From positions 23,583 to 87,582 of the forward strand of contig CAZOGI010000010.1 in NCBI GenBank assembly GCA_964579435.1: a stretch of 64,000 bases of DNA, read 5' to 3'. The DNA comes from an uncultured Planctomycetales bacterium. GTDB taxonomy: Bacteria > Omnitrophota > Gorgyraeia > Gygaellales > Profunditerraquicolaceae. Shown here piece after piece: positions 37,457-60,207 of this stretch. The first letter of the stretch is position 1, and each line of letters starts with the position of its first letter. The notes beneath the pieces were generated by a model. That model was not told the origin of the DNA. It saw only the letters and a list, made by a program, of their open reading frames with translations, and did no database searches. Both the position numbers and the translations under genes were made by a program.

Positions 37457-37475
37457 CGGGCCGTTTTGCGGCCGT

Positions 37476-37814
37476 TCATGTCTTCTGGCCCTCTGCCTCC
37501 AGCAGCACGAGTCTTTGGGTAAGCAGTTTGATCTTCTGTTCGAGACAGGAGATAGCGATCGAAAAATGGAGCAGCATCGCCGTGATGACGAAAAACGCTG
37601 CAAGAAAGAGCAGGGAGGGAGGGTAGTAGACGCCGACGAGCGCCGAGACCCGCTCCAGCAACGCGCGCCAAAGGCACAGGGAGAGGAGCATCCCGCAGCC
37701 CAGAAGCCACAGCAGGGCATACTTCTCCTTAAGACGCCCCGTGCGGATGCTGTAGAAGACAAAACCGACCAGCGCCAGGATCCCGCATACCGCAAACACT
37801 TGTATCCGGCTCAT
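37476..37814 (-). CDS. DUF2304-family small membrane protein
   Basis: 112 aa. LKEKYALLWLL...YYPPSLLFL core plus a C-terminal coiled-coil tail. Start overlaps the stop of the upstream GT2. Confidence 0.7.
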   Translation of the reverse strand: MSRIQVFAVCGILALVGFVFYSIRTGRLKEKYALLWLLGCGMLLSLCLWRALLERVSALVGVYYPPSLLFLAAFFVITAMLLHFSIAISCLEQKIKLLTQRLVLLEAEGQKT

Positions 37815-38548
37815 TCCTCGCCTCCCGGGTTATCCGTTTTTCCTGCCGACACCAGCAACAGCGCCAAAGAGACTTTGGCCATGTAATACAACGCCCGCAA
37901 AGGGGTAATGCTCGAGCGGCCGCCGCAACGTCCCCGCATCGCCACCGGCACCTCAAGCACCCGGAAACCGCTCTTGAGCGCCAAAACCGTCGATTCCGGC
38001 TCCGGATAATCATCCGCATACTCCCGGGAAAAAAGCTCGACCACCTCACGCCTCATGAGACGCATACCCGAAGTCGGATCGGTTATCCAAACTCCGGTCC
38101 GCAGCCAGATCAGGCAGGACAGGAACCGGATACCGATCCTGCGCAGGAACGTGGAAGGATAGCCGCCTGCGGCACGGAAACGCGAGGCAATGACCATATC
38201 CGCACCCGCCTGCGAAGCGCGGCGGCACAGCAGCGCCGCCATCGCCGGGAGCGCCGCGGCGGGATGCTGTCCGTCGCCGTCAACCTGAACGAGGGCGTCA
38301 AATCCTTGGCGCAGGCAATAACGGAAACCCGTCTGCATGATCGCGCCGATCCCCATGTTGAAAGGCATCCGTAACACCGTAGCCCCGGCGGCACGGGCGG
38401 ACTCATCCGTCGCGTCCCCAGAAGCATCGTCGATCACCAGGACCTCGGCAGCCACGCCCGAACCCTTGACCTCGGCGATGACACCCCGAATGCTCTCTTC
38501 CTCGTTGTATGCGGGGACCACCGCCAGAACCCGCAATTGCTCACTCAT
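37811..38548 (-). CDS. glycosyltransferase family 2, polyprenyl-phosphate glycosyltransferase-like
   Basis: Track ORF trimmed to ATG 38548 (MSEQLRVLAVVPAYNEEESI). VLVIDDASGD and VDGDGQHP. Confidence 0.8.
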   Translation of the reverse strand: MSEQLRVLAVVPAYNEEESIRGVIAEVKGSGVAAEVLVIDDASGDATDESARAAGATVLRMPFNMGIGAIMQTGFRYCLRQGFDALVQVDGDGQHPAAALPAMAALLCRRASQAGADMVIASRFRAAGGYPSTFLRRIGIRFLSCLIWLRTGVWITDPTSGMRLMRREVVELFSREYADDYPEPESTVLALKSGFRVLEVPVAMRGRCGGRSSITPLRALYYMAKVSLALLLVSAGKTDNPGGEE

Positions 38549-40769
38549 AGGCCGGCGCATCCTCCCGCAACGGATCAACCGCTGCCCCCGCGAGGCTGCG
38601 CTCGATCATCCAGATCTTATCCTTCAACTGCTCCTTTATCAACGCCTCCTGCCGGGAATCCCCGAGCCGTTCCACCACCCGCCGGTAGACGGCAATACTC
38701 TCCTGCGCACGGCCAAGGCGCTCATAGCACACCCCCAGGTAATACTGTGACAGGGAAAATTCCGGGACAACGCAGACGATCCCTTCCAGATGGGGGAGCG
38801 CCTCGCTAAAAAGGGACTGGGACATAAGCGTCATGGCCAGGTTATACCGGGCCGGCAGCAGGGCCGGCATGATCTCCAAGCAGCGCTGATACAGCCGGAC
38901 CGCTTTTTGCGGATTTCCCGCGCTGCGGTAACAGACCGCCGCGTTTATCATCGCTTGCACCGCCTGCGGGTGCTCCTTAAGGACGGCCTCGAACGAGGCG
39001 ATCGCGTCAGAGTAGCGTTTCTGCTGCAGGAAAGAAAACCCCTGCGCATACGCCGGGCTGGCGCCTGCGTCATTGAGGAACGCAGCGATCTTCTTCTCTA
39101 CTCCCATCTTCAGGAAGGCCTCGCGGGCATCCCGGGGCGCCATCCCCTGTAACCGCAGCGCCGCCTCGAGCAACAGGTACAGCTCAAGCGCATCATGATG
39201 CAGGAGCAGCGTCTGCTTGATGACCGTTTCCGCCGCCGCAGCCTCGCCGCTGCGCAGCAGCGCCTCGGCGAGATTGCGCCCGGCCCACAGATGGTTCGGG
39301 CGCAAACGCAGAGCCTCCCGGTATTCGCCGATTGCCCGCGGCAAATCCCCCCGCGCGTGATAGAGGAGCCCGACCTGATTATGCGCATCCGCCAGCGGCA
39401 CCTGGTCGAAATTGGGCGCGTGCAGGCTCGTCGCCCTTACCATGACCAGCACCAGCGCGCCCCGCGCCAGGAGTTCCCTGCCGCGCTGCGCGCGCGCGGC
39501 ATTCACGGTTGCGGCCAAAAAATCAGCCGCCCAGAGAGCCAAAACCGGCACCAGGACTTCCCGGTACCGGTCGATTATGTGGCCCAGGATCAACACCAGC
39601 GACGTCACAAAAAAATAGAGGATCAGCGGACCGTGCCCTTCCAGACCGCGCCGGCGCAGGATCATCCACGCCAATCCGCTTAGACCAAAGACGGCCAGCG
39701 GCCAGAACCCGATCGAGCCGTAGCGCAGGAGGCGCGAGCGCAGCCGGAAATACGCCATCTGGTAATTATCGGAGAGCCCGGTCCGGTTTACCAGGAGTAT
39801 GGATTTGCGGCCGAGAAGCTGCCAGAAATGCGCCGGATCGGACCGGATCTCCTCGATCGTCTGTCGGGTCCAGAAACGGGAGACCTGCGACGGCTTCAGG
39901 GGACGGCCGCTGCGGCGCCGGGCCTCGCGCAGCGAATCGATCTCTTCGAACGCCGGGTCGATGCGCATGAAATCCGGCTCTTTGAGGCCGCCGTCGGCAC
40001 CCCGGAAATTACCGATGTAAAAGTTGATCCCGGCGCCGTAGGTCGTCAAAACCGCATCTTTACCGACAACCAAATTGCGCACGGCAAGGACGCCGATGAC
40101 CAGGCCGAAACCGAGCAGGAAAGAGAAAACGCGCTTGACGGCGGGTGCGCTGAGGCGGCCGGTAACGGCGATGAAAACGGCCAACGCCAGGGCAAAAACA
40201 AGCACGGTATCCTTTGCCAGGGCGGCAAACCCCAGGCACATCCCCGCGGCGAACCAGGCCGCAGGTTTCAAAGAACGCTGCGCCCGCATGACGCACCAGA
40301 GGCCGGCCGTGCACCAGAAGACTTCCAAAACCGATTTCAGGAGCAAGCTCTCGAAAAAGATCGCCGGTCCGTAGAAAACGCTGATCAGGGAAGCCAGGAG
40401 CGCCCTGCGGCGCGACATGAGCATGCACCCCATCGAATACACGAAAAGCGGGACGCAGGAACCGATCAGGAACTGGATAAGGCGAGCGGCGGTGATCGAA
40501 CCTCCGAGGGCGTACACCACCGCCAAAAAATACGCGTACAGCGGCGAGACAAAATAGATGCCGTTGCCCAGCCACCCTTTGGAGAGAAGCGAGCGCGCCC
40601 AGGCGTCATAATACTGGGAATCGAAAAGGAGGGAACCAAAAAGGATGTCGCCGCGCACCTCAAAAAAATAGGCCAGGCGCAGCACAAGGGCGGCGGCAAA
40701 GAGAGCTCCCCAGAGCCATCGGGGGGGAGGTTTGAGCGCCGCACCGGGAGTGGCGGGTGATCGCGACAT
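38541..40769 (-). CDS. ArnT/PMT_2-like GT-C glycosyltransferase with C-terminal TPR domain
   Basis: 742 aa. N-terminal LFDSQYYDAWARSLL...SPLYAYFLAVVYALGG, about 11 TM helices, and a C-terminal TPR array (e.g. AIASFEAVLKEHPQAVQAMINAAVCY). Confidence 0.7.
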   Translation of the reverse strand: MSRSPATPGAALKPPPRWLWGALFAAALVLRLAYFFEVRGDILFGSLLFDSQYYDAWARSLLSKGWLGNGIYFVSPLYAYFLAVVYALGGSITAARLIQFLIGSCVPLFVYSMGCMLMSRRRALLASLISVFYGPAIFFESLLLKSVLEVFWCTAGLWCVMRAQRSLKPAAWFAAGMCLGFAALAKDTVLVFALALAVFIAVTGRLSAPAVKRVFSFLLGFGLVIGVLAVRNLVVGKDAVLTTYGAGINFYIGNFRGADGGLKEPDFMRIDPAFEEIDSLREARRRSGRPLKPSQVSRFWTRQTIEEIRSDPAHFWQLLGRKSILLVNRTGLSDNYQMAYFRLRSRLLRYGSIGFWPLAVFGLSGLAWMILRRRGLEGHGPLILYFFVTSLVLILGHIIDRYREVLVPVLALWAADFLAATVNAARAQRGRELLARGALVLVMVRATSLHAPNFDQVPLADAHNQVGLLYHARGDLPRAIGEYREALRLRPNHLWAGRNLAEALLRSGEAAAAETVIKQTLLLHHDALELYLLLEAALRLQGMAPRDAREAFLKMGVEKKIAAFLNDAGASPAYAQGFSFLQQKRYSDAIASFEAVLKEHPQAVQAMINAAVCYRSAGNPQKAVRLYQRCLEIMPALLPARYNLAMTLMSQSLFSEALPHLEGIVCVVPEFSLSQYYLGVCYERLGRAQESIAVYRRVVERLGDSRQEALIKEQLKDKIWMIERSLAGAAVDPLREDAPAYE

Positions 40770-40773
40770 TGGG

Positions 40774-41757
40774 TTACCTCTCCTGGCGCGCCTGAAAAAG
40801 CGCCAGCGCTTTCAGGACGACGCAGGTGGTATGCAAATAGAACCCCTCATCGACGCGCCTGCCGTAGAGGGCGCGCAAGCGCTCGTAGTCCCCGAAGGAG
40901 CCGTTCGGATTCTGGCAGGAGAGAAGGAACTTTACTCCCTGAGGGATAATCGTTGCTGTGCGCATTTTGAGCAGTTCCATGCACAGTAAAAGCTCGGCCA
41001 CCAGGTCGGGATCCCGCTTTCCGATATATGCCGCAGCCAGATCGCTCAGGACCGAATCCAGGTATTGCGCATCGCTTTCGCTCAGCAGCTCCGACAGGGA
41101 GTCGTCACCGAAGCCGGCGAGCGCCAGGACCTCATGCGTCAGCGCGTACACCTCCAGCGTATCGAGGGCAGAAGCATCGGGACGCGCCTGGATAATGCCC
41201 GCGCGGTATGCCGCACGCAGGTCAAAGGGCGGCTCGATGCCGAAAAAACGGTAATAGACGGCGAAAGCCAGCTGCTGGTTAACGCCCCGGGAAGAAAGGT
41301 GCGCGTTCAGGCGGGGGAGGATGGCGCGGATCTCTTGGCGGTATGCGGTTGTCTCGAAGCCGGATTTCTCCAGGAGGTAACAAAAACGCAGGTACGAGGT
41401 CGCATCCTCGGCAAACTGCTCCGCCGGGATCGCTCCCATATCGTGAAACGAAGCCTCCTCGGTGATGCGGGCGATCTTGCGCAGGCGCAGCTCGAGGGAC
41501 GGCCGCAGCTGCGGCGGCAGACGGGGCGCGATCGCCGTATACGCTTCAAAAAGCTCGACGGTCTTTTTCTTCCCCTTGATCCCGAAACGGCGCAATTGCC
41601 CCGGGTTAAACTCGATCGTATCCAGCCAGGGCGCAGCCTTGATCATGCTGCGCAGCAGGAGTTCCCGGAGCAAAGGCTCCGAGGAAGCGCCGCAACCGGG
41701 CACCGCGACAGAGAGGCCGACAACCAAAGCAAGGGGGAGGAAGGTACGGTTCGTCAT
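40774..41757 (-). CDS. secreted protein or lipoprotein with a prenyltransferase/terpene-cyclase-like alpha/alpha-toroid repeat
   Basis: 327 aa. Signal peptide LALVVGLSVAVPGCG with a possible lipobox. C-terminal LLSCQNPNGSFGDY. Confidence 0.45.
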   Translation of the reverse strand: MTNRTFLPLALVVGLSVAVPGCGASSEPLLRELLLRSMIKAAPWLDTIEFNPGQLRRFGIKGKKKTVELFEAYTAIAPRLPPQLRPSLELRLRKIARITEEASFHDMGAIPAEQFAEDATSYLRFCYLLEKSGFETTAYRQEIRAILPRLNAHLSSRGVNQQLAFAVYYRFFGIEPPFDLRAAYRAGIIQARPDASALDTLEVYALTHEVLALAGFGDDSLSELLSESDAQYLDSVLSDLAAAYIGKRDPDLVAELLLCMELLKMRTATIIPQGVKFLLSCQNPNGSFGDYERLRALYGRRVDEGFYLHTTCVVLKALALFQARQER

Positions 41758-41773
41758 AGCGACTTGAGGAAAT

Positions 41774-41802
41774 ATTATAACATGAAAGGTCGCAGGGACA
41801 CA
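41774..41802 (-). promoter_or_regulatory. candidate promoter for the minus-strand block (TGTGTC-17 nt-TATAAT)
   Basis: On the minus strand, TATAAT (plus-strand 41774-41779) lies 16 nt upstream of ATG 41757. The -35 is weak. Confidence 0.3.
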
Positions 41803-41831
41803 ATGACCCTTGATACCAGCCTAAAATCCCA

Positions 41832-41860
41832 TTGAGTTAACCGGCGGCGGTTGATAGAAT
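41832..41860 (+). promoter_or_regulatory. sigma70-like promoter TTGAGT-17 nt-TAGAAT, leaderless-type
   Basis: -35 at 41832-41837 and -10 at 41855-41860. ATG 41869 lies only 8 nt after the -10. Confidence 0.5.
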
Positions 41861-41868
41861 AAGGGCAG

Positions 41869-43308
41869 ATGAATATATTACTCCTGAACCCCTCCTTCGG
41901 CCCCGACTTCTGCAAATCCGCCCGCTGGTTCGCCCGCTCGCGCGGCAGGGTGCAGCGCCATCCCGATTTCCTCTGCGAGGCAACGGCGCTTCTGGAAGCG
42001 CACGGACACGACTGCGCGCTTATCGACGCGGCTGCCGGGAACCTCGGCGCCGAAGAGACCGCCCAACACATACGCCGCATCCGGCCGCAGTTGACGCTCA
42101 TCCAGGCAACGACCCCGAGCATCGATTCCGACATCTCCTGGGCCCGGCAGGCAAAAGAGCTGACCGGCGGCAGGTCCCGCACCGTTCTGGTCGGAGCGCA
42201 CGTGACCGCCGAACCCGAAGACACCTTGCGGCGGGGCAGGGGCGCGGTTGATGCCGTTGCCCGGGGAGAGTACGACCTGACGCTCAAGGAACTGGCAGAT
42301 GGATCTGACTTCGGCTCGATCCTTGGCCTTGCGTACCTGAGCGCCGACACGTTCGTCGCCACCGCGCCGCGCCCGTTCATCGAAGACCTGGACACGCTGC
42401 CCTTTCCGGCGTGGAGACACATCGACCCGCGCACCTACCGCGACGGGACCAAACGCCACCCCTTTATCACGCTGCTGGGCTCCCGGGGGTGCTTGGGGAC
42501 ATGCACCTTCTGCCTTTTGCCGCAAACGATGTACGGCCGCCGCGCCCGGACCAAGAGCCCGCAGCGCATTATCGATGAGATCCGCTACGATCTTGGCCTC
42601 TTCCCGTTCCTGAAGGAGATCATGTTCGAGGACGACACCTTTGTCAGCGCCGCTAACGCGGGGCGCCTCGAAAGCATATGCCGCCTCCTGGAAAAAGAAC
42701 GCATCCGCATACCCTGGAGCGCAAACGCGCGCGCCGACCTGCTCGACCGCGCGCTCCTGGAGCGCCTTAAAAAATGCGGTTGCAGGATGCTCTGCGTCGG
42801 TTACGAATTCGGCGCCCAGGAGATGCTGGATGCGGCCGGCAAGAATATTCCGCTTTCGACGATGCGCGAATTTTCCGCGTGGGCTGCCGAAGCCGGTATC
42901 CGCCTGCACGGCTGTTTCATGTTCGGCGGACCGGGGGAGAACGAGCGGACCTGCAGACAGACCCTGGAGTTCGCCAAAGAGCTTCCCCTGGAAACGGCCC
43001 AGTTCTCGGGGATCGCCGCGTACCCGGGCACCGCGTATTACCGGTGGTCGAAAGAGAAGGGATATCTGTGCGCCCGCGACTGGAGCGACTGGGTCCGCGC
43101 AGACGGCGAGCAGGCGACGGTGCTGCAGTTCCCCGGACTCCCCAAAGAAGAAATAAACCGCTGGATCAACAGGAGCCTGCGCGAATTTTACCTGCGTCCG
43201 GCGCAGCTCGCCCGGCTCGCGGGGGCGAGCCTGCGCAGCTGGAACGATTTCGAAACAAGGCTCTACGGTCTGCGTCAATTACTCGCGGGCGAGGCGCTCA
43301 AACGATGA
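41869..43308 (+). CDS. B12-binding-domain radical SAM enzyme (paralogue 1)
   Basis: 479 aa. N-terminal MNILLLNP...HGHDCALIDA (B12-binding-like). LLGSRGCLGTCTFC CxxxCxxC cluster motif. Confidence 0.85.
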   Translation: MNILLLNPSFGPDFCKSARWFARSRGRVQRHPDFLCEATALLEAHGHDCALIDAAAGNLGAEETAQHIRRIRPQLTLIQATTPSIDSDISWARQAKELTGGRSRTVLVGAHVTAEPEDTLRRGRGAVDAVARGEYDLTLKELADGSDFGSILGLAYLSADTFVATAPRPFIEDLDTLPFPAWRHIDPRTYRDGTKRHPFITLLGSRGCLGTCTFCLLPQTMYGRRARTKSPQRIIDEIRYDLGLFPFLKEIMFEDDTFVSAANAGRLESICRLLEKERIRIPWSANARADLLDRALLERLKKCGCRMLCVGYEFGAQEMLDAAGKNIPLSTMREFSAWAAEAGIRLHGCFMFGGPGENERTCRQTLEFAKELPLETAQFSGIAAYPGTAYYRWSKEKGYLCARDWSDWVRADGEQATVLQFPGLPKEEINRWINRSLREFYLRPAQLARLAGASLRSWNDFETRLYGLRQLLAGEALKR

Positions 43309-44705
43309 ACGTGCTCTTTATCGAACCTCCTGCCTTCGGCCCGTTCGGGACCCTGCGGATCCTGGGCAGCATCGGCTCGCTCAAGGCCGACATCCGCTGG
43401 CCGCCGTACGACCTGATGATCCTGGCGGGGATGGCGCGCGCGCAAAAACATCGCGCGCAGATCATCGATGCCCAAACCCGGGGCATGGACCTGCGCGCCG
43501 TGAAAGCCGCGATCGCCTCGCGCAATCCCGATTTTGTCGTTTTCACGACGACGCCGTTGACGCTGAGAGAGGATGCCCGCGTCGCAGAAGCCGCAAAAGC
43601 GGCTTCTGCCGCCATTCGCACCGTTGCCGTCGGACTCTCCATGCGCGCCTATCCGCTCAACCCCCTGCAGGAGACCCCGGCGCTGGACTATGCGGCGTAT
43701 GCCGATCCCGAGCCGATCCTCTCACAACTCCTGGAAGGGTGCCCCCCCGAAACAATCCCCGGGATATACCGCAGAGGCGCCGATCTTGCCGTCAAGAACC
43801 CGCCTGCGCAGCCGGCCCCGGATCTTGACCGCTTCGGTATACCCGCCCAGGACCTCATCGAGCATGCGCGATACCGCGATCCGCTCATGCGCGCGCGGCC
43901 GATGACCATCGTCAACTGTTCCCGCGGCTGTGCGGGATCCTGCGCCCACTGCCTCTCCGTTTTCCAGAAACCCCTGCGCTACCGAAGCGTCGCTTCGGTG
44001 ATGGAGGAGCTGCGGCTGTGTTGGCGGCTGGGCGTGCGCGAGATAAAATTTTTCGATTGCGGATTGACCAACGACCCTGACTGGACACGAAGGCTCTGCG
44101 AGGAGATGCTGCGCGGGGGGCTGTGCTTCTCCTGGAACGCAAACAGCCGTTGCGACCGTCTCAGCCTGCCGCTTTTGAAGCTGATGAAAAGAGCGGGGTG
44201 CCATACGGTGGCGATCGGCTCGGAGAGCGCAAGCAATACGGTACTGCGGGAGATGAACAAAGGGGTCACCCGCGATGGCATTGCCAAAGCCGTCGCAGAA
44301 GCCCGGAAGGCAGGCCTACGCATCATGCTCTATTTCACCCTGGGGCTCAAAGGGGAAACCGAAGAGACCGTCAAAGAGACCATCTCCTTCGCAAAAAGAA
44401 TGAACCCGGACTTCGCCACCTTCGGCCTGGCCGTGCCCATCCCGCAGACTCCCTTTTACGATTATCTCGTATCACAGGGGCTGCTCAAGAACGCCGGGAA
44501 CGCCTCCGGCGACCCGGACAACATACCCGCGTTTTCCTATCCGGGTTTAAGCGCTGCGCGGCTCTTTGCGCTCTCCCGAGAAGCATACCGTTCGTTTTAT
44601 CTGCGCCCGTCCTACATCCTGAAGAAACTCCTGGGGGCAACGCCCCGGGGGCTGATCAACGACGCGCGCAACGCCGTATACCTGGCGAAACGGATACTGC
44701 AATGA
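43305..44705 (+). CDS. B12-binding-domain radical SAM enzyme (paralogue 2)
   Basis: Track ORF 42774 trimmed to ATG 43305 (ATGA overlap). MNVLFIEPP..., VNCSRGCAGSCAHC. Confidence 0.85.
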   Translation: MNVLFIEPPAFGPFGTLRILGSIGSLKADIRWPPYDLMILAGMARAQKHRAQIIDAQTRGMDLRAVKAAIASRNPDFVVFTTTPLTLREDARVAEAAKAASAAIRTVAVGLSMRAYPLNPLQETPALDYAAYADPEPILSQLLEGCPPETIPGIYRRGADLAVKNPPAQPAPDLDRFGIPAQDLIEHARYRDPLMRARPMTIVNCSRGCAGSCAHCLSVFQKPLRYRSVASVMEELRLCWRLGVREIKFFDCGLTNDPDWTRRLCEEMLRGGLCFSWNANSRCDRLSLPLLKLMKRAGCHTVAIGSESASNTVLREMNKGVTRDGIAKAVAEARKAGLRIMLYFTLGLKGETEETVKETISFAKRMNPDFATFGLAVPIPQTPFYDYLVSQGLLKNAGNASGDPDNIPAFSYPGLSAARLFALSREAYRSFYLRPSYILKKLLGATPRGLINDARNAVYLAKRILQ

Positions 44706-46093
44706 CCGGACAAACAATCCTCCTGGTCAATCCCGGTCACCGCGAATGGGCGCGTGTGCTGCCGCTGGGCATCGCCTACGTTGCCGCTGCCGCCCGGAAA
44801 GCGGGATTCCCGGTGCGCACGATCGACGCAACCGCCGAACGACTTTCACCGCAGGCGCTGGCCCTGCGATTGAAAAAACTCAAACCTGCGGTCCTGGGGA
44901 TCACCGCGACCACGGTGCAGATCGCCTCTGCCTGGGAGATCGCCCGCCTGGCAAAAGAGCATGATCCCGGCTGCGTCACGGTGCTGGGAGGAGTCCACCC
45001 CAGCGCGCTGCCCGAGGAGAGCCTGGGACAGCCGTCTGTTGATTTCGTCTGCAGGGGAGAGGGAGAAGCAACTTTCGTTTCTTTACTCAGCGCCCTTTCC
45101 TCCCGCACTCACCCAGGGTCGGTCCAGGGGATATCCTTCCGCTCAAACGGCTCTGTCGTGCACACGCCGGACCGCCGGCTCGTTCCCGATCCGGACCTCT
45201 TCGCGTTTCCGGCGCGGGAGCTCTTTGACTTCCCCCGCCGGTACCAAAGCCCCCTTGCCCTGCGAAGAAGATGCGCGACGATCCTGACCAGCAGGGGCTG
45301 CCCGGGCACCTGCACCTTCTGCAACAAAAATATCTCCGGAAGCGTCTTTAGGCCGCGCAGCCCCGCCTCGGTCATCGAAGAGATGGAATCGCTCATCCGC
45401 ACCTTCGGCATCCAGGAATTCCATATTGCCGACGACTGTTTCAGCTGGGACATGCAGCGGGTCATGGACCTCTGCGCGCTGATGCGCAAACGCATCCCCG
45501 CCATCCGCTGGGCCTGCACCAACGGCATCCGCGTCGACCGCTCGACCAAACCGTTCTTTCGCGAAATGAAAGCCGCCGGCTGTTACCGCGTCTCCTTCGG
45601 CGTCGAATCGGGAGACGAGGCGCTGCTGAAGCGCATCGGCAAGAATATAGACCAGGAATCGATACGCAGGGCCGTCTCGCTTGCCCAAAGCGCAGGACTC
45701 GTCACCATCTGCTTTTTTATGCTCGGCAATCACGGCGAGACTGCCGCTCACGCTCAAAAAACCATCGAATTCGCCCGCTCTCTGCGCACCGATTACGCCC
45801 AGTTCACGCTGGCCATGCCCTATCCGGGAACCGCATTTTTCAGGCAGCTGGAGAAAGAAGGCCGGATCCGCAGCCGCGATTGGAGGAGGTATTCGGTGTA
45901 CGGGCCGGACATTCCCTACGAGCCGGCCGGGATGAGCGCAGAGGAATTGCTGGGCTTCTACAGACAGGCGTACCGCGCCTTTTATCTGCGGCCACGGCAG
46001 ATCGCCTTTCTCCTTTCCCGGCGGCTGCGCCTCGGCGCCGGCATCGGCAGCTTCGTACGCTCATCAGCGGAGGTCTTGCGCCGTGCCCGATAA
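44702..46093 (+). CDS. B12-binding-domain radical SAM enzyme (paralogue 3)
   Basis: Track ORF 44123 trimmed to ATG 44702 (ATGA overlap). TILLVNPGH..., LTSRGCPGTCTFC. Confidence 0.85.
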   Translation: MTGQTILLVNPGHREWARVLPLGIAYVAAAARKAGFPVRTIDATAERLSPQALALRLKKLKPAVLGITATTVQIASAWEIARLAKEHDPGCVTVLGGVHPSALPEESLGQPSVDFVCRGEGEATFVSLLSALSSRTHPGSVQGISFRSNGSVVHTPDRRLVPDPDLFAFPARELFDFPRRYQSPLALRRRCATILTSRGCPGTCTFCNKNISGSVFRPRSPASVIEEMESLIRTFGIQEFHIADDCFSWDMQRVMDLCALMRKRIPAIRWACTNGIRVDRSTKPFFREMKAAGCYRVSFGVESGDEALLKRIGKNIDQESIRRAVSLAQSAGLVTICFFMLGNHGETAAHAQKTIEFARSLRTDYAQFTLAMPYPGTAFFRQLEKEGRIRSRDWRRYSVYGPDIPYEPAGMSAEELLGFYRQAYRAFYLRPRQIAFLLSRRLRLGAGIGSFVRSSAEVLRRAR

Positions 46094-47084
46094 GAGCGCC
46101 ATGCCGGACATAGCCATCATCATTCCCGCCCGCAACTGCGCCGGCACCATACCGCTTGCGCTACAGGCGTGCCTCAAGCAGGATTACGCCGGCAGATACG
46201 AAATAATCGTCGTGGATGACGGCTCAACCGATGATACCGCAGCGGCCGTCAAAAATTTCCCCGTGCGTCTCATCGAACAAAAACACGCCGGCCCTGCCTG
46301 CGCGCGCAACCGGGGGACAAAAGCTTCAGAGGCGCAGCGCTACGCTTTCATCGATGCGGACTGCGTGCCGCCGTGCGATTGGCTGCGGCGCCTCAACGCT
46401 GCCTTCACGGCAACGGGGTACGCCTGCGCCTACGGCAGCTACACGATCCGCAACAAAAACTCCCTCCTGGCGGAAGGGATCTACCGGGAAATACTCCTGC
46501 GCCACAGCCGCCTCAAACAGGACTCTGCCGCACTCGGCTCCTACAACGCAATCTTCGACGCGACAGTCTTTCACGAATGCGGCGGCTTCGACGAATCATT
46601 CCGGGACGCAAGCGCCGAGGACACGGAGCTGGCGTACCGCCTTCGCCGCAACGGCAAACGCATACTTTTTCTGCCGGAGTGCACAGTGGCGCATCTTTTC
46701 CCCGAGCAGCTGGATTTCTATCTGGCTTCCCAATTCCGCCACGGTTTCTGGAGAGCGCGTCTCTACAGGCTGCATCCGGCAATGGCGGCAGGGGACGGAT
46801 ACACGCGGCTCAAGGACATCATCGAGACGCCCGCGGCGCTCCTGCTGAGCCTCTGCGCCGCGTTCTTTTTTCATCACGCCTGCCGCGTTGCCGCACTCCT
46901 GCTCTTTGCGGGACTGCTGCTTGCGCATGGCGCCTCCGCGGCGCAGCTCTCCCTGCAGGCGAAAAAGCCGGCGCTCCTCCTGTATGCCGGCGCGCTGCTC
47001 CTGCGCAGTTTTGCGCGGGCATACGGATTCTTTTTCGGGCTTCTGGCACTTCCCGGCAAAAACCGATGCGCTGCTCGATCGTAA
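46083..47084 (+). CDS. glycosyltransferase family 2 with C-terminal TM helices
   Basis: 333 aa; GTG 46083, or ATG 46101 as an alternative start. IAIIIPARNCAGTI...IIVVDDGSTDDT and FIDADC. Confidence 0.75.
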   Translation: MPDKSAMPDIAIIIPARNCAGTIPLALQACLKQDYAGRYEIIVVDDGSTDDTAAAVKNFPVRLIEQKHAGPACARNRGTKASEAQRYAFIDADCVPPCDWLRRLNAAFTATGYACAYGSYTIRNKNSLLAEGIYREILLRHSRLKQDSAALGSYNAIFDATVFHECGGFDESFRDASAEDTELAYRLRRNGKRILFLPECTVAHLFPEQLDFYLASQFRHGFWRARLYRLHPAMAAGDGYTRLKDIIETPAALLLSLCAAFFFHHACRVAALLLFAGLLLAHGASAAQLSLQAKKPALLLYAGALLLRSFARAYGFFFGLLALPGKNRCAARS

Positions 47085-47752
47085 TCCCCGCCCACAACGA
47101 AGAGGGCACGATCCGGACGCTCCTGGAAAGAACCCGGGAGTTTCTCGGCGGAACCGGGGAATGCGAGATCATTGTGGTCGATGACGGCTCAAGCGATAAA
47201 ACCGCAGAGCGGGTGCAGAAACTGGCGGCATCGATCCCGACGATACGGCTCCTGCGTCTTTCTCCCCGCAGAGGGCAGGGGATGGCGCTTGCCGCCGGGA
47301 TTGCTGCCGCACAGACCGGCATCATCGTCACGATGGATGCCGACCTGCAGAACGACCCGGCCGATATCCCGGCCCTGCTTGAGCGTCTCGAAAACGGCTT
47401 TGACGTTGTCTGCGGCTGGCGCAAAAACAGGAAAGACCCGTTCGTAAAACGAATAAAATCCCGGGTCGCCAACCTCTTGCAACGCCTTTTGCTCGGCGTT
47501 AAACTGCATGATATGAGCTGCACCCTGCGCGCCTACCGGCGGGAGGCGCTCGAAGGGATCGAATTCGGGCGGGGGTATGATTTTTCGCTCCTGCCGTACC
47601 TGATCGCGCGCCGCAAAGCCATGCGCATCTGCGAGGTCCCGGTCAGCCACGAGCGCCGGCACAGCGGCACCTCCAAATACGGGTTTTGGGGGACCTGCGC
47701 CGGGACATTCGTCAGTTTTGTGCGCTGCGTTGCAGCGCGACCGCATAAATGA
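47066..47752 (+). CDS. glycosyltransferase family 2, polyprenyl-phosphate glycosyltransferase (ArnC/GtrB/DPM1 type)
   Basis: Track ORF 46373 trimmed to ATG 47066. CSIVIPAHNEEGTI...IIVVDDGSSDKT...MDADLQNDP...CTLRAYRREAL. Confidence 0.85.
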   Translation: MRCSIVIPAHNEEGTIRTLLERTREFLGGTGECEIIVVDDGSSDKTAERVQKLAASIPTIRLLRLSPRRGQGMALAAGIAAAQTGIIVTMDADLQNDPADIPALLERLENGFDVVCGWRKNRKDPFVKRIKSRVANLLQRLLLGVKLHDMSCTLRAYRREALEGIEFGRGYDFSLLPYLIARRKAMRICEVPVSHERRHSGTSKYGFWGTCAGTFVSFVRCVAARPHK

Positions 47753-47799
47753 GGCGTGACCATCTAGAAACAAGAGACCTGGGTCAGGAAACATGCACA

Positions 47800-49704
47800 A
47801 TGCAAGGATACCCCATGACTGATCGCCGATTCAACCTTTTCATCAGCTTCGCCTGCCTGGCGCTCATCGCGCTCTCCTACGCCAACACTCTCAAGGCGGA
47901 TTTCCACTTCGACGATTTCGACAGCATCGTCAATGTCCCGGCGATCCGCAGCCTGACCAATTTCAAGGAGATATTCCGTCTCACCGAACGGCCGCTCGTC
48001 AACTACTCCTTCGCCGTCAACTACTTCTTCGGAAAACTCAACGTCACCGGATTCCATCTGGTCAATATCGGGCTCCACGCGCTCTGCACGCTGCTGGTCT
48101 TTTTCTTCCTGCGGGAATTGCTTGGCGTACCCCTGCTTAAGGAACGCTACAGCCAAAAGATTGGCCGGTGGCTCTCTGCGGGAAGCGCGTTTCTTTTTGC
48201 CGTCCATCCGGCCAGAGTGGAAGCGGTCACGTATATTACCGCCCGATCGGAGAGCATGGCGTCGGCTTTTTATCTGCTCTCCTGCCTTTGCTTCCTGAAA
48301 TCCCTCTCTGACATCAAGAGAGAGCGGCTCTTCCAAGCGGCGGCAATTGTAGCCAGCGCCATCGGCATGGCAACCAAGGAGATCGTCGCCACACTGCCGG
48401 CGTCCCTGCTGCTGCTCGATTATCTTTTTGTGTGCGCCGGGAATCCCGCCTGCCTGAAGAAACGCGCCCGGTTCCATGCCTCGATGTTCGCCACGATCGC
48501 CGTTACCGTTGCGCTGGTGCTCTATTCGGACAAATGGGGAGCAGCCGGACTGGGTAACCCGAACCTGCACACGCCCCTTCAACACGCCCTCAGTGGTTTG
48601 CGCGCGTACGTCTATTATCTGGCCCTTTTCATCTTTCCGGCACCCGGACGCCTTAACTTCGACACCGATTTTGCCCTCTCCCGCAGCTTCACCGAACCGC
48701 AGGTCCTCGGCGCAAGCCTCTTCATCGCCGCGGCACTTGTCTTGGCCCTGTACGAATCGCGCCGGTGCCCCTTGATCACCTTCGCGATCTTGTGGTATTT
48801 TCTCCTGCTTCTGCCGACCACCAGCTTCATTCCGATCGAAGACCTCGTCTATGAGCGCAGGATGTATCTGGCCGCGCTCGGGCCCGGGCTCATCACGCTC
48901 CTTGCCCTCGGGCCGCTTCCCCGACGCCTGCGCATCGGCATTCTGGCGCTGACAGTCGGGATCCTCTCCCTGTGGACCATCCAGCGCAACGCCATCTGGC
49001 GAACCGAATTCTCCCTCCTGAGCGATTCGCTCAAAAAATCTCCGTACAAAACCCGCACGCTTACGAATATGGGCATGTTTTACCTCACCAAACAACAGGA
49101 CTTAGCTGCTGCCCGCTCCTACCTTGCCAGGGCCTTGCACTACAACCCGGATGCGGCAAACAGCCTGCTGAATATGGGCGTGGTGCAGCTGTTGGAGAAC
49201 AATCTGTCCGGGGCAGAACAACTTTTCCGTAAATTGCTTTATCTCTTTCCGGACGCAACCGCCGGCTATGTCAACCTGGCGACCGTATACCGCCGCTCCG
49301 GCCGGCTCCGGGAAGCAGAAGAGCTTCTACGAACCGCAATCACCATCGAACCTTCCTTCGCGGAAGCGTACGGGAATCTGGGCGTTATTCTGGCAAGCAA
49401 AAGAGAATTTGAGGAAGCCGAAAAGGCGCTTATTAAATCAATCGCTCTGAATCCCGATCTGCCTGAGCCGCACCATAGCCTGGGGCTCATCTATCAGAAG
49501 AGGGGTGACCATAAAAACGCTATCACTCAATTCCAGAGAGCCGTCACTTTGCAGCCTCAATTTTCAAAGGCTCTTTACAGCATGGGCATCTCGTACCTGG
49601 CGCTTGGAGATAAAGAAAAAGCAGAGGAGACGTATGCGAAGCTCCTGAAAATCAATCTTGATCTGGCGCTAAACTTGTTGTCCAGGATTGAGTTAAGACT
49701 TTAG
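47800..49704 (+). CDS. TPR-repeat GT-C glycosyltransferase-like protein (TMTC/DUF1736-type)
   Basis: Track ORF 47749 trimmed to ATG 47800. TM1 then FHFDDFD, about 10 TM helices, and a C-terminal TPR array. Paralogue of 34685-37456. Confidence 0.7.
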   Translation: MQGYPMTDRRFNLFISFACLALIALSYANTLKADFHFDDFDSIVNVPAIRSLTNFKEIFRLTERPLVNYSFAVNYFFGKLNVTGFHLVNIGLHALCTLLVFFFLRELLGVPLLKERYSQKIGRWLSAGSAFLFAVHPARVEAVTYITARSESMASAFYLLSCLCFLKSLSDIKRERLFQAAAIVASAIGMATKEIVATLPASLLLLDYLFVCAGNPACLKKRARFHASMFATIAVTVALVLYSDKWGAAGLGNPNLHTPLQHALSGLRAYVYYLALFIFPAPGRLNFDTDFALSRSFTEPQVLGASLFIAAALVLALYESRRCPLITFAILWYFLLLLPTTSFIPIEDLVYERRMYLAALGPGLITLLALGPLPRRLRIGILALTVGILSLWTIQRNAIWRTEFSLLSDSLKKSPYKTRTLTNMGMFYLTKQQDLAAARSYLARALHYNPDAANSLLNMGVVQLLENNLSGAEQLFRKLLYLFPDATAGYVNLATVYRRSGRLREAEELLRTAITIEPSFAEAYGNLGVILASKREFEEAEKALIKSIALNPDLPEPHHSLGLIYQKRGDHKNAITQFQRAVTLQPQFSKALYSMGISYLALGDKEKAEETYAKLLKINLDLALNLLSRIELRL

Positions 49705-49810
49705 TGAGGAGTGAGGAGTTAGGAGTTTGGAGTTTGGAGCTATGCTTTTAGTTCGTATTTTCTCCCAACTCCTAACTCCCTACCCCCAACTCCCTACTCC
49801 CAACTCCCGA
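49705..49810. repeat. inverted arrays of heptanucleotide tandem repeats (long imperfect hairpin; possible terminator/insulator)
   Basis: Left arm: GAGGAGT GAGGAGT TAGGAGT TTGGAGT TTGGAGC. About a 20-nt AT-rich spacer. Right arm: CTCCCAA CTCCTAA CTCCCTA CCCCCAA CTCCCTA CTCCCAA CTCCCGA. The arms are largely complementary. Confidence 0.8.
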
Positions 49811-49950: not shown

Positions 49951-52900
49951 ATGAAGAGCTTACCGACAAAGAAATTTTTCCGCACTTTTCTCATCCTGGG
50001 GATAACGACGCTCCTGTGCGCAACCCCGCATGCCCTTGCCGCAACCCGTTTCTATTTCGACGCCTCAACCGCAGCAGATGTCACTGCCTCCTATGACGCC
50101 GGCTGGGAATACCAATCCGAGGCAGGCCGCTACAAACTCAACAGGACCAAAGGCTCCTCCGCAATAACCATCGGCACCCAGATCGGCCCCTGGACCGCCG
50201 GCAGCGCCAACCAGGCCCTTGACCGCCAGTACATAAGCGATCCGATCGAAGCCCAGACCATAAGCGGCACGGTCAAAGGCCAGGTCATGTCGCGTGAATA
50301 CAACACCAGCGATAACGTGAACCGGATGTACATCACGGTCAAAGTCGTCTCCAACGACGGTTCCAGCGTGCGGGGGACACTCCTTGCCCTCAATACCTAT
50401 TACACGAATGCCGAACTGATCAGCAACGTAACCCACCGCAACGCCATCCTTGCCAATTCCGACACCGTCACCAACGTCACCGCGCAGCAGGGCGACCGCA
50501 TCCTCATCGAGATCGGCTTCGGCAGCTCGACAACCCAGACCACGCCCGAAGGCTCCTGCAAATGGGGGGAGAATGCATCCGACCTCCCGGAAAACGAAAC
50601 CCAAACAACCGACGGTGCGGGGTGGTTTGAGTTCTCCGCGGATATCACTTTCTATACTCCGCCCAAACCGCAATTCACCCAGAAAGCCTACCAGTGGGAG
50701 AATGACGATTCAACCTCAGGCGTCAACGCCAATTCACAGGCAGCCGAAGACAATACCGCCCTTACCGACGTGCGCATCGGACAGCGCCTCACCTGCAGGA
50801 TGCAGGTCGAGAACGACTCAACCGCCGCATCGAGCGACACCGTCTATCAGCTGCAGTGGGAGAACAACACCGATAACCCCGGGCGCTGGTTCCCGGTCGG
50901 CTACGGGACGCAGATCTCGTACGCAACCGGGCTCGCCGGCTTAAGCGGCGCCTCAACCGGCACCACCGCGCTCTGCGGAACCCCCACGTACACCATGGTC
51001 GCCGGCACCTGGCAGTCAGGGACGAGCCAGAACCCGCCCCACTCCATGGAGACGCAGCGAAGCGCGGAATTCTCTTTTGTCATCGACACCGCCAACGCAA
51101 AAGAAAATAAAGTCTATCGCCTGCGCCTCTTCGACAAAACAAACGCCCAGGCTTTCAATGCCTACACCGTCTATCCGCAGCTGACCACCGTCACCGCCGC
51201 CAACAACACCCTGCGCTACAGCAAAGAGCCACTCGATGCGGTGCAGAACACCTGGCGCATGGCCTCCTATCTGGACGAAACCGGCTATGACAACAGCGCC
51301 TCGGATAACTCGGTTTACGATTCGCTCCCCGCCCGGCGGCTTGCCCTTCGTGCGCAAGCCGACCTGACCTTTACCTCATTCGATGTTTCGCAATACCCGA
51401 CCTCGCAGATGGCCGTAGGCGTGGGAGACTTCAACAACGACGGCTACAACGACCTGCTCATGGGCGGCCAGCGCTACGCGACCTATGTCGGCCGGGCATA
51501 CCTTTATCTCGGCGGCAGCCCGATGGACAGCGTCTGTGACCTCACCATGCAGGCCGGTGCCCTCTACACCAATTCTTATTTCGGCTCCGCGGTCGCGGTC
51601 GGAGATATCAACAACGACAGTTTCGACGACGCCGTGGTCGGCAACTGGGGGTATTACCGTATGTACCTCTACTACGGCTCCACGACCATGAACAACGTCA
51701 TCGACATGACCTTTACCGGCGAAGCGACGAGCGACTACTACGGCTATTCGATCGGCATCAACGACGTCAACGGCGACAGCTTCAAGGATATCGTCACCAA
51801 CGCCCAGTGGTGGAATAACGGCCAGGGAAGACTCTACGTCTATTACGGCGGCACCACGATGAACAATGTTTGTGACCTGACGATAAACGGACAGGGAGGG
51901 GTGCACAACTATCCCGGGTTCGCCTGCGTCGTCGAAGACGTCAACAACGACAGTTTTGCCGACATACTCGTCAGCTCTCCCTACTACTACTATTCGGACA
52001 TGCGCGGCAGGGCATGGCTCTGGTACGGCGGAAACCCGATGGATGCCACCTGCGACAAGACCTTTACCGGAGAGACAACGGGCTCCTATTTCGGCGCTTC
52101 GGGATTATCGATCGGCGAAGTCAATAACGACGGCTTTAAGGACATCCTTATCGGAGCCTACGTCTACAGCTCCACGAAGGGCCGATCGTATCTTTTTTAT
52201 GGAGCGACCGGCACGAGCATGGATATAACCGCTGACAAAACCATCACCGGGAACGCGGGAGACTATCAGGGACAGGGAGAGCAGATCGTCGACGTCAATA
52301 ACGACGACTACGCTGACCTGGTCATCGGCGCCGATGCCTTCGGCAACAGCAGGGGAGTGGTCAAGATTTACTACGGCGGCGCCGACATGGACATCGTCGA
52401 AGACCTCAGCATCGCCACGGGCCAGACAGGCAACTATTTTTCCCAATCGGTCAATACGGGCGACCTGAACAACGACGGGGCCGCTGACCTGATCATCGGA
52501 GCCAACAGCTATCCGAGCCTCACCTACCAGGGCCGCGCCTGGGTTTATTACACCAAACCCCTCTTTGCCCCAACCCAGATCTTCGCCAAAAAGAACACCA
52601 ACAACACCGATTACATCGCCTTTGCCTGGAAAGGCAAAACCGACATGGCCGCAACTTCCGACAACATCATCGTCGAGGCTGCCCAGCAGACGGCGATGGA
52701 TGGCACTAACGACGAGACATTCACCGGAGAAGCGGGGAGCAATTTTTTCAGCAACTGTATCGCGCTTGCCGATTTCAACAACGACCATTACCAGGACCTG
52801 GTGCTGGGCGCCGACGGCTACAACAGCAACCAGGGCCGCGCCTATCTCTACTACGGCGGCACCGGCATAGTCGACACCGCCGCGGCACTTACGTTTAATT

Positions 52901-57924: not shown

Positions 57925-58745
57925 CAACCCGTCTTTTTTGCATCGAAATAGCCGATTATCCCTTCGGCATAGAAGCGCCCGAACCCCTCTGGGGCGCATT
58001 TCAGGAAACCTATCTGCCGTTCCTGAGCGCCCGGGAGCCGCGCTACCGCATCCGCGCCGAGATCGACCCCACCGCGCAACCCGTTGACCTCTGGGAGGGG
58101 ATGACCCTGGATAAGACGACGCTCTCGATCAGCGATGACACCTCGAGTGCGCGTTTCGATTTCAAGACAAAAGAAGGGACGATCCGCCTGAACCCCGCCA
58201 GACTCCTGGTGCCGTTGGGCGCCTTCCTGCGCAATATCGTCACTGTGCTCTTGAGCCTCCAGGATGACGGCCTCCTGATGCATGCCTGCGGGGTCCTGTA
58301 CGAAGAGGAAGCATTCCTCTTCACCGGGCGTTCCGGCGCCGGAAAAACGACGGTATCGCGCGCGCTCGCCCATTTGCCGACGATCTCCGACGATCTTTTG
58401 CTGGTCAAGCCCACCCCCGGAGGATTCGGCGTCTGGCCGCACCCGCGCTGGGGAGACCGCCAGAGCGGATCATTCCAAAACCGGCCGCACCGGATCAGCA
58501 GTATTTACCTCTTGTGCCAGGATACCGGGGTTTTCGTGAAAAGGCTCGGCCCGGCCCGGGCCACCGCGCACCTCTTGACCGTTCCGCACGTCCCCGTCAA
58601 CCGCATCCCCGCCGCGCGCATCCTGGAAAGCACCCAACGCCTGGCGGAGACGGTCCCGGTGTACGAACTGCACTTCCGGCCCGACCCGTCGTTCTGGGAA
58701 AAGATACTGCAGGAGAGAGAAAGGATTGTCGCTGCATGGAAATGA
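57921..58745 (+). CDS. HPr kinase-related (HprK-like) P-loop kinase
   Basis: 274 aa. ATGA overlap with the giant gene stop. MHACGVLYEEEAFLFTGRSGAGKTTVSRAL...ISDD aligns with the HprK C-terminal catalytic core. Confidence 0.7.
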   Translation: MTTRLFCIEIADYPFGIEAPEPLWGAFQETYLPFLSAREPRYRIRAEIDPTAQPVDLWEGMTLDKTTLSISDDTSSARFDFKTKEGTIRLNPARLLVPLGAFLRNIVTVLLSLQDDGLLMHACGVLYEEEAFLFTGRSGAGKTTVSRALAHLPTISDDLLLVKPTPGGFGVWPHPRWGDRQSGSFQNRPHRISSIYLLCQDTGVFVKRLGPARATAHLLTVPHVPVNRIPAARILESTQRLAETVPVYELHFRPDPSFWEKILQERERIVAAWK

Positions 58746-59017
58746 AATCAGCAATCCCGTTCAAGAACGAGAAGACCGCTTCCCGCATCATCCAGGACCA
58801 GGCCGTGATCGTCATCCTGGAAAACCAGGAGACGGTGGTCCTCAACGAGAGCGCCTCGCGCATCTGGGAACTAAGCGACGGGAAACGCACGCTCGGGGAA
58901 ATCGCCCGCATACTGGAAGAGGAATTTTCGGTATCCGCGCAAACCGCCCTGCAGGACGCCGCCGCCTTCCTGGGCGAAGCGGAAGGCAAGGGGATCTTTT
59001 CACTCAACCGCCCATGA
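58742..59017 (+). CDS. PqqD-family protein (stand-alone RiPP recognition element-like)
   Basis: Track ORF 58514 trimmed to ATG 58742 (ATGA overlap); ATG 58736 is an alternative. VVLNESASRIWELSDGKRTLGEIARILEEEFSV...AAFLGEAEGKGIF. Confidence 0.75.
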   Translation: MKSAIPFKNEKTASRIIQDQAVIVILENQETVVLNESASRIWELSDGKRTLGEIARILEEEFSVSAQTALQDAAAFLGEAEGKGIFSLNRP

Positions 59018-60036: not shown

Positions 60037-60194
60037 ACAAGAAAAATCAACCCGCCGCGAAACGACCGTACACCAAACCCGCTATCGCCTTCAGCAAAAA
60101 GATCGAGATCATCTCCGCGGTATGCGATTCCGGCTTCGGCGGACTGAGCAACTGCCGCAAATCATCGACGCCCTGCCTGCGTTCCCGGGCCTAA
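60033..60194 (+). CDS. 53-aa candidate precursor peptide (not in the supplied ORF track)
   Basis: ATG 60033 overlaps the rSAM stop (ATGA), with GGAG 8 nt upstream. Translation: MNKKNQPAAKRPYTKPAIAFSKKIEIISAVCDSGFGGLSNCRKSSTPCLRSRA. GC3-rich codons. Three Cys and several Ser/Thr lie in the C-terminal 23 residues. Confidence 0.55.
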   Translation: MNKKNQPAAKRPYTKPAIAFSKKIEIISAVCDSGFGGLSNCRKSSTPCLRSRA

Positions 60195-60207
60195 GCTCAG
60201 GCGTACC

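Follow-up and report, generated by a model that had tools for sequence, protein, structure and literature searches.

The stretch of DNA considered here (the window) is 64,000 nt long and comes from an uncultured Planctomycetales bacterium (assembly GCA_964579435.1, contig CAZOGI010000010.1, positions 23,583–87,582), with a G+C content of about 60%. Its subject is a run of three consecutive forward-strand genes encoding radical S-adenosylmethionine (SAM) proteins, here called R1 (41869–43308, 479 aa), R2 (43305–44705, 466 aa), and R3 (44702–46093, 463 aa), together with the glycosyltransferase and membrane protein genes on either side. Genes for family 2 glycosyltransferases (GT2) are called GT2a, GT2b, and GT2c, related loci in other genomes are numbered as L0xx, and homologous proteins as P00xx. 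The initial annotation of this region described three tandem open reading frames (ORFs) of 463–479 aa joined by ATGA start/stop overlaps, and the ORF list and translations bear this out: R1 and R2 overlap at 43305 and R2 and R3 at 44702, an arrangement that suggests translational coupling of all three. Each has hundreds of full-length homologues, with E-values in a homology search down to about 1e-145 to 1e-179, so they are real genes rather than chance ORFs. As also proposed initially, the trio heads a glycosyltransferase operon.

Judged by sequence, the architecture of all three is that of class B-type radical SAM proteins. The N-terminal domain, with the pattern xILLxNP...IDA in each, passes the Pfam gathering cutoff for B12-binding (PF02310, 32.1 bits) throughout, at 43.5 bits for R1, a rather weak 39.2 for R2, and 80.3 for R3, the strongest match of the trio. 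The Radical_SAM domain (PF04055, cutoff 29.5 bits) scores 54.7, 78.6, and 73.0 bits, respectively. The B12-binding-like domain and CxxxCxxC cluster motif read from the letters were thus both correct; the motif stands in the translations as SRGCLGTCTFC in R1, SRGCAGSCAHC in R2, and SRGCPGTCTFC in R3, and its cysteines are unchanged throughout the alignments of R1 and of R2 (C209, C213, and C216 in R2). Hydropathy indicates no membrane segments in any of the three, and they are only 27–33% identical to one another.

The initial annotation had allowed that these proteins might fall into clades with established, unrelated functions; they do not, since every NCBIfam equivalog cutoff is missed. For both R1 and R2 the best NCBIfam model is that of HpnJ (TIGR03471, cutoff 577.6 bits), at 331.3 and 182.2 bits (192.3 for R3). 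In R1, the next family scores 116 bits, and residues 4–465 align to positions 5–457 of the 472 in the HpnJ model. R3 is best matched by BchE (TIGR02026, cutoff 481), at 206 bits, with 116 for R1 and 96 for R2. The AprD4-family model (NF033070, cutoff 500) gives 89.6, 109.6, and 91.8 bits for R1, R2, and R3, and AprD4 is the closest relative of solved structure by sequence for all of them (75–95 bits, with R2 at 95). It is also the top PDB fold match (template modeling score, TM, 0.76–0.80) of an AlphaFold model of R1 (AF2, 38-sequence alignment; pLDDT 88.8, pTM 0.89), which has a five-stranded Rossmann-like N-domain; the cobalamin-dependent enzymes MgmA/QCMT, TsrM, OxsB, CysS, and TokK come next. 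HpnJ and BchE are non-methylases, the former with a proposed role in contraction of a sugar ring and the latter a cyclase (PMC9204698), and AprD4 is a radical SAM sugar 1,2-diol dehydratase with a Rossmann-like domain that binds no cobalamin (PMC12931638). With a domain of this kind functioning without cobalamin in AprD4, and with HpnJ and BchE not methylating, it would be unsafe to take either the use of cobalamin or the transfer of methyl groups for granted in R1–R3.

The three proteins represent separate families. Orthologues of R1 are 50–58% identical to it and score 333–407 bits on the HpnJ model; those of R2, the rarest of the three subfamilies, reach at most 50%, many of them with no detectable PF02310 domain; and those of R3, at about 50%, are found on the same contigs as R2 orthologues. 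Public databases label these proteins “BchE” (the usual automatic annotation in Joint Genome Institute (JGI) data), “YgiQ”, and in one case “HpnJ”. The last is an R1 orthologue (P0074) that reaches only 357 bits on the HpnJ model and has glycan rather than hopanoid genes as neighbors. All three labels are over-annotations.

Two features of the R1 family may be noted here. After the first beta strand is an invariant Arg-rich loop (41908–41967, residues 14–33), modelled by AlphaFold at low confidence, in which F14, R19, W20, A22, S24, R25, R27, Q29, R30, H31, P32, and D33 do not vary; it may serve to bind a phosphate or a cofactor. Some R1 orthologues also carry a class I SAM methyltransferase domain as a C-terminal fusion, giving proteins of about 700 aa in total, and others have a gene for such a methyltransferase immediately upstream (cases of one kind or the other are L036 10001–12094, L039 7291–9446, and proteins P0008, P0015, P0017, and P0019).

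Downstream of the trio, on the same strand, are two GT2 genes and a gene for a large membrane protein. GT2a (46083–47084, 333 aa) is a membrane-anchored GT2 that matches the Pfam families Glycos_transf_2, Glyco_trans_2_3, and Glyco_transf_21; it has C-terminal hydrophobic helices by hydropathy, and its full-length PDB match is a membrane GT2, 6yv7. GT2b (47066–47752, 228 aa, with its true start at the ATG at 47066) is a short soluble GT2 by Pfam, of the ArnC/DPMS class, the polyprenyl-phosphate glycosyltransferase type; it scores 130 bits on an ArnC-type NCBIfam model, which is under the cutoff. The third gene (47749–49704) encodes a polytopic protein of 651 aa with about 9–11 hydrophobic segments in its N-terminal half, a FHFDD motif after the first of these, and C-terminal TPR repeats. 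It was initially called a TPR-containing GT-C glycosyltransferase. The TPR repeats and both GT2 genes stand, and the GT-C label depends on a profile–profile match. At E ≤ 0.1 the protein has no GT-C Pfam hit; it has no PDB sequence match and no BLASTP match to the PMT_2 protein of the window, and a single TMEM260-like sequence gave no signal, but hhalign of its profile to a profile of PMT_2-type GT-C proteins gave 94.7% probability (E 6e-8, 131 columns). By this remote homology it is a probable GT-C transferase.

The functional unit is larger than initially described, for a divergent operon on the reverse strand (34685–41757) is part of the same system. Its first gene (40774–41757) encodes a DUF6895 protein (Pfam, 80 bits) with a lipoprotein-type signal (VPGC), and is kept at the same position in L003. 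Next is a GT-C glycosyltransferase (38541–40769) with a PMT_2 domain (Pfam, 37.5 bits) and C-terminal TPR repeats, which has an orthologue in L003 at 45% identity. GT2c (37811–38578) is a short GT2 of the GacI/PpgS/DPMS class whose best PDB matches are DPMS and ArnC, with orthologues of 38–50% identity inside the cassette in many loci; it scores 90.6 bits on the NCBIfam PpgS model (NF058614, cutoff 370), a match at the level of the enzyme class. The GT2c stop overlaps the start of a gene for a small DUF2304 membrane protein of the GacJ/Rv3632 family (37476–37814; Pfam, 82 bits), 59% identical by tblastn to the L003 copy; this gene lies within a longer, spurious ORF and was initially missed for that reason. 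The same pairing of a short GT2 with DUF2304 is present in about ten related loci. The last gene (34685 to about 37468, the start being approximate) encodes a paralogue of the TPR/GT-C-like membrane protein of the other operon (47749–49704), with 30% identity over 654 aa and the motif SPFQFDD.

Related loci were sampled by a pattern scan built on an R2 alignment and run on one genome per species. This yielded 28 loci, all from metagenome-assembled genomes (MAGs), in Omnitrophota, Nitrospirota/Thermodesulfovibrionia, Brocadiaceae and other Planctomycetota, Elusimicrobia, Bdellovibrionota, Bacteroidota, and Aenigmatarchaeota. Hand-picked loci of R1 orthologues were added, as were loci of Gemmatimonadota type from metagenome contigs. 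A neighbor-joining tree of 74 radical SAM ORFs has three deep clades, one holding R1, one R2, and one R3; each contains many loci, and the tree together with a tblastn map places one member of each clade in most loci. The R3-side clade is the most heterogeneous. By this evidence R1, R2, and R3 are ancient, non-redundant paralogues, and the tree rules out a recent tandem duplication or a set of iterative copies. Three ancient orthogroups that cross phyla point to three different steps instead, so of the iterative or regiospecific carbon modification envisaged in the initial annotation, the iterative form is unlikely.

In relatives, the array shows strong synteny with glycan genes, a point that the initial annotation had suggested checking. 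Twelve loci have 4 kb or more of sequence on both sides; among these, GT2a and the short GT2 are each present in ten and DUF2304 in six, and ten have at least two radical SAM genes and seven at least three. These three partners recur with the array in MAGs from at least eight bacterial phyla and from Aenigmatarchaeota, often joined by GT-C, GT4, and sugar-nucleotide enzymes, and when neighboring ORFs were clustered without bias only glycan families recurred: GT2 (18 loci), NAD-epimerase/dehydratase (11), DUF2304 (10), GT4 (7), and NTP-transferase as well, along with PMT_2 GT-C proteins (two clusters of four, plus the type shared by the window and L003). The closest relative, L003, has a counterpart for each gene of the two operons in the window other than GT2b, which it lacks, and has an extra, fourth radical SAM gene. 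In L005, a compact block with the order GT2a-GT2c-R1-R2-R3-DUF2304 is set between uvrB and groES/EL, so that the cassette behaves as a self-contained module inside housekeeping DNA. An array of this kind had been described as foreign to standard extracellular polysaccharide (EPS) and O-antigen loci; it is indeed not found in characterized ones, but among MAGs it is a cassette seen repeatedly rather than an isolated case.

GT2a is the most constant partner of R1-type genes, and adjoins R1 orthologues in L035, L036, L039, and L040. Independently sampled R1 orthologues are again found beside GT2a-type and GT-C genes (PMT_2, GT87, or TMEM260-like), sometimes with one further radical SAM gene or none, so that R1 and GT2a look like the core of the cassette and R2 and R3 like additions. 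Genes of the R2 clade are also found on contigs of Aenigmatarchaeota (DPANN) MAGs (L017, L023, and L025). One of these, L025, has nearly the whole cassette, with GT2a, R1, an R3-like gene, R2, and a short GT2; either inter-domain transfer or binning contamination could account for these.

Two kinds of characterized system resemble parts of this cassette. In the bacteriohopanetetrol cyclitol ether branch of hopanoid synthesis (HpnI/HpnJ, with HpnK), there is likewise a membrane GT2 beside a radical SAM protein with a B12-binding domain and identical architecture. HpnI, a GT2, puts N-acetylglucosamine (GlcNAc) on bacteriohopanetetrol, and the reaction proposed for HpnJ is a radical rearrangement of a lipid-linked hexosamine, in which the glucosamine ring contracts to a cyclitol (PMC13459092; PMC9204698). 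The differences are considerable: GT2a scores only 26 bits on the HpnI model and R1 falls short of the HpnJ cutoff, the cassette has no HpnK-type deacetylase, and it has two or three further radical SAM paralogues as well as GT-C transferases. No hopanoid genes (shc, hpnH, hpnI, or hpnK) were found in the 64-kb window or in the annotated related loci. Score and genomic context together rule out R1 as a true HpnJ. BchE, the anaerobic Mg-protoporphyrin IX monomethyl ester cyclase, provides the best model for R3, yet no (bacterio)chlorophyll genes are near R1–R3. AprD4, of apramycin biosynthesis (PDB 6FD2), is like R1–R3 in its two-domain layout and acts on a sugar ring, but it is only about 22% identical to them and its pathway context is aminoglycoside biosynthesis.

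The divergent operon has its own counterparts in GacI/GacJ/GacL of Streptococcus and PpgS/Rv3632/Rv3779 of Mycobacterium, where a short GT2 of the DPMS/ArnC class is similarly found beside a DUF2304 protein, with a GT-C in the locus. The GacI/GacJ and PpgS/Rv3632 pairs make GlcNAc- or N-acetylgalactosamine (GalNAc)-phosphoryl-polyprenol, which a GT-C then uses outside the membrane (bioRxiv 10.1101/180810). Those systems move unmodified GlcNAc or GalNAc and have no radical SAM protein, whereas here there are two to four class B-type radical SAM genes. Literature searches (HpnJ with glycosyltransferase, HpnJ homologues, B12-binding radical SAM with polyprenyl, and DUF2304) returned no description of the cassette. 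We know of no characterized three-component glycosylation system that includes radical SAM enzymes, nor of a characterized HpnJ-like enzyme that works outside hopanoids. A link to the heavily O-glycosylated S-layer of anammox bacteria was also pursued, and led nowhere in the literature.

From this gene content and arrangement we infer a substrate, a carrier, an order of steps, and the chemistry of the cassette. The preferred explanation, with a probability of roughly 0.45, is that the cassette carries out radical tailoring of a sugar linked to a phosphate carrier, probably polyprenyl phosphate, that R1–R3 make three distinct modifications, and that the GT-C/TPR proteins transfer the product to an acceptor in the envelope. 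The short DPMS/ArnC-class GT2 and its DUF2304 helper would put the sugar on the carrier at the cytoplasmic face of the membrane, with the membrane GT2 (GT2a) as a further component. R1, R2, and R3, as non-redundant enzymes, would each use a 5′-deoxyadenosyl radical to modify an unactivated carbon of the carrier-linked sugar. R1 would most likely carry out a rearrangement of the sugar skeleton of HpnJ type on the product of GT2a, by analogy with HpnJ acting on the product of HpnI, and R2 and R3 would add steps such as dehydration, C-methylation, or another rearrangement. The tailored sugar would then be flipped, and the GT-C/TPR transferases would attach it to a polysaccharide, protein, or lipid outside the membrane. 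The carrier-sugar part of the model is suggested by the presence of DUF2304, a short GT2, and PMT_2 in the divergent operon, as in the GacI/GacJ/GacL and PpgS/Rv3632 systems; the proposal for R1 by HpnJ being its best hidden Markov model (HMM) and by the parallel between GT2a with R1 and HpnI with HpnJ; and a sugar as substrate by the sugar diol-dehydratase AprD4 being the best solved relative of all three.

Several points weigh against this explanation. The three subfamilies are known from sequence alone, and the reaction of HpnJ is itself known from genetics only. The HpnJ analogy is one of partial similarity, all of the equivalog cutoffs being missed by a wide margin. The cassette contains no obvious flippase or deacetylase, and genes of the LPG_synthase_TM family are found in some loci only. 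Because the loci were gathered by way of R2 or of R1 homologues chosen by hand, the synteny frequencies are not those of an unbiased census. Finally, the sequence fits a polyprenyl-phosphate sugar, a nucleoside diphosphate (NDP)-sugar, a glycolipid head group, or a finished polymer alike, and does not distinguish among them. As to the flippase, an LPG_synthase_TM (MprF-flippase/HpnL-like) gene flanks R1 orthologues in L001 (11460–13578), L035 (12970–13893), and L040 (10990–11883), and could supply the function otherwise missing; in L001 the R1 orthologue is flanked by a radical SAM/SPASM gene as well.

Among other explanations, R1–R3 might all be cobalamin-dependent C-methyltransferases, each for a different carbon of a sugar or glycan, much like MoeK5, GenK/GenD1, or BotRMT1–3. 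Most characterized class B enzymes do methylate, and pathways with multiple methylations typically have arrays of paralogues (PMC9204698). All three proteins pass the B12-binding threshold, R3 strongly so, and R3 scores 100–130 bits on P- and C-methyltransferase models. MoeK5 in particular methylates a lipid-linked sugar, its substrate being a lipid-phosphate-linked saccharide, and is grouped with HpnJ and Fom3 in a published similarity network (PMC9204698). MoeK5, GenK, and GenD1, sugar C-methyltransferases with a B12-binding domain, are likened to R1–R3 by description rather than by sequence, however, and come from antibiotic pathways rather than from loci for envelope glycans. The families closest to R1–R3, HpnJ and BchE by HMM and AprD4 by structure, are non-methylases, so C-methylation, as proposed in the initial annotation, becomes one option among several; AprD4 also demonstrates that such an N-domain need not bind cobalamin (PMC12931638), and the B12-binding domain of the R2 type is weak or undetected in many orthologues. 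The class I methyltransferase fused or adjacent to several R1 orthologues weakly suggests that any methylation is done by another enzyme. Three methyltransferases are therefore judged unlikely.

The substrates might instead be soluble, nucleotide-activated sugars in the cytoplasm, from which the enzymes would make unusual donors for the GT2 and GT4 enzymes without acting on a lipid-linked intermediate. The absence of membrane segments in R1–R3 fits this, as do the NAD-epimerase/dehydratase and NTP-transferase genes that recur around the arrays, and the invariant loop of R1 could bind (pyro)phosphate. Fom3 works on a CMP (cytidine monophosphate)-linked substrate. OxsB likewise uses nucleotides (PMC9204698). 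The tightest linkage of the array, however, is to the membrane GT2a and the GacI/GacJ-type pair rather than to sugar-nucleotide enzymes, of which the minimal cassette in L005 has none, and the nearest analogues, HpnJ and MoeK5, act after glycosyl transfer to a lipid; soluble substrates are thus quite unlikely. That R1–R3 modify the lipid part of a glycolipid, an isoprenoid or acyl chain to which the GT2s merely add head groups, is improbable. It has precedents in the hopanoid methylases, the glycerol dialkyl glycerol tetraether (GDGT) ring synthases, and the proposed ladderane enzymes, and is in keeping with the occurrence of the cassette in Brocadiaceae MAGs and with the LPG_synthase_TM neighbors of some R1 genes. 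Scores of 78–119 bits on the HpnR model and the ladderane-associated “lipid biosynthesis B12-binding/radical SAM” model are nevertheless below those for HpnJ and BchE and far under the cutoffs, and isoprenoid and fatty-acid synthesis genes do not recur in the neighborhoods, where the recurring families are all glycan enzymes. A role in maturation of ribosomally synthesized and post-translationally modified peptides (RiPPs), tied to the PqqD and radical SAM/SPASM genes farther downstream, is least credible of all and can be given very little weight. A ScmC/PqqD/radical SAM-SPASM set does lie 8–12 kb downstream in both the window and L003, and R3 and the fourth L003 paralogue score 131 and 162 bits on an ApyD-type model, but its cutoff is 750; the trio is kept with GT2 and DUF2304 in loci without peptide-maturation genes (e.g., L005, L012, L018, and L021), and no conserved small ORF resembling a precursor was found.

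If tailoring of a carrier-linked sugar is the correct explanation, it can be carried a step further, to a proposal that is rather doubtful in this specific form. The cassette would be an unrecognized, widespread pathway in which three radical SAM enzymes turn a carrier-linked hexose or N-acetylhexosamine (HexNAc) into a carbocyclic (cyclitol-type) or a C-branched or deoxy sugar, to be installed on the surface by a GT-C, in Omnitrophota, Nitrospirota, Elusimicrobia, Planctomycetota, Gemmatimonadota, Bdellovibrionota, Bacteroidota, and DPANN archaea. The envelope sugar would then be of a new class, and HpnJ-type chemistry would have a new role beyond hopanoids. Class B radical SAM proteins are a very large and mostly uncharacterized group for which function prediction is poor, and here three distinct members are linked to a glycosylation scheme that is well understood, in a portable module of 6–8 genes, found in many uncultured anaerobic phyla. 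The setting of a polyprenyl-phosphate-sugar synthase, its helper, and a GT-C gives a testable substrate hypothesis for three orphan subfamilies, and may be a sign of unusual sugars on the surface of lineages about whose envelopes next to nothing is known; should R1 carry out HpnJ-like chemistry, it would offer a hopanoid-independent system in which to study that unsolved reaction. The parts belong to known superfamilies and their logic is like that of known systems, and nothing so far indicates a surprising mechanism; with its clear boundaries, the cassette offers a sound starting point for enzymology and for work on the envelopes of uncultured lineages.

The two operons are separated by a divergent intergenic region of 111 bp (41758–41868, not assigned to a strand) with promoter-like hexamers. 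Promoter and terminator scans gave matches at the consensus level only, and the terminator count was not above that for shuffled sequence. Directly after the stop codon of the 47749–49704 gene, on the forward strand, is a long hairpin (49704–49810) with a minimum free energy of −42.5 kcal/mol (z −4.67), equalled in stability by none of 200 shuffles. Each arm consists of tandem repeats about 7 nt in length, with GGAGTTN as the unit on the left and AACTCCC on the right. It probably ends the operon, and is probably a terminator or a repetitive extragenic palindromic (REP)-like element.

The 64-kb window as a whole is an envelope-glycan supercluster, with sugar-nucleotide enzymes and several GT2, GT4, and PMT_2 genes, as well as an XrtA/PEP-CTERM-like amidotransferase (632 bits, under the cutoff) and a Wzc-like tyrosine kinase (61915–63846). 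Between the glycan operon and the genes farther downstream is a giant ORF of 2657 aa (49951–57924) with many FG-GAP repeats and Propeptide_C25 and Peptidase_C25 (gingipain-like) domains, which is not at this position in the syntenic L003. At the other end, adjoining the divergent operon, a 744-aa protein (32483–34717) combines a membrane region at its N-terminus with a spermine/spermidine-synthase-like domain. Between the cassette and the Wzc-like kinase, a conserved gene set (57921–61824 in the window, 16185–20130 in L003) encodes a P-loop/ScmC-like protein, a radical SAM/SPASM protein, and an NTP_transf_5 nucleotidyltransferase. The radical SAM/SPASM protein has an N-terminal extension of about 110 aa, and PqqD is a separate gene in L003. 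This set looks like a peptide-maturation system within an EPS locus.

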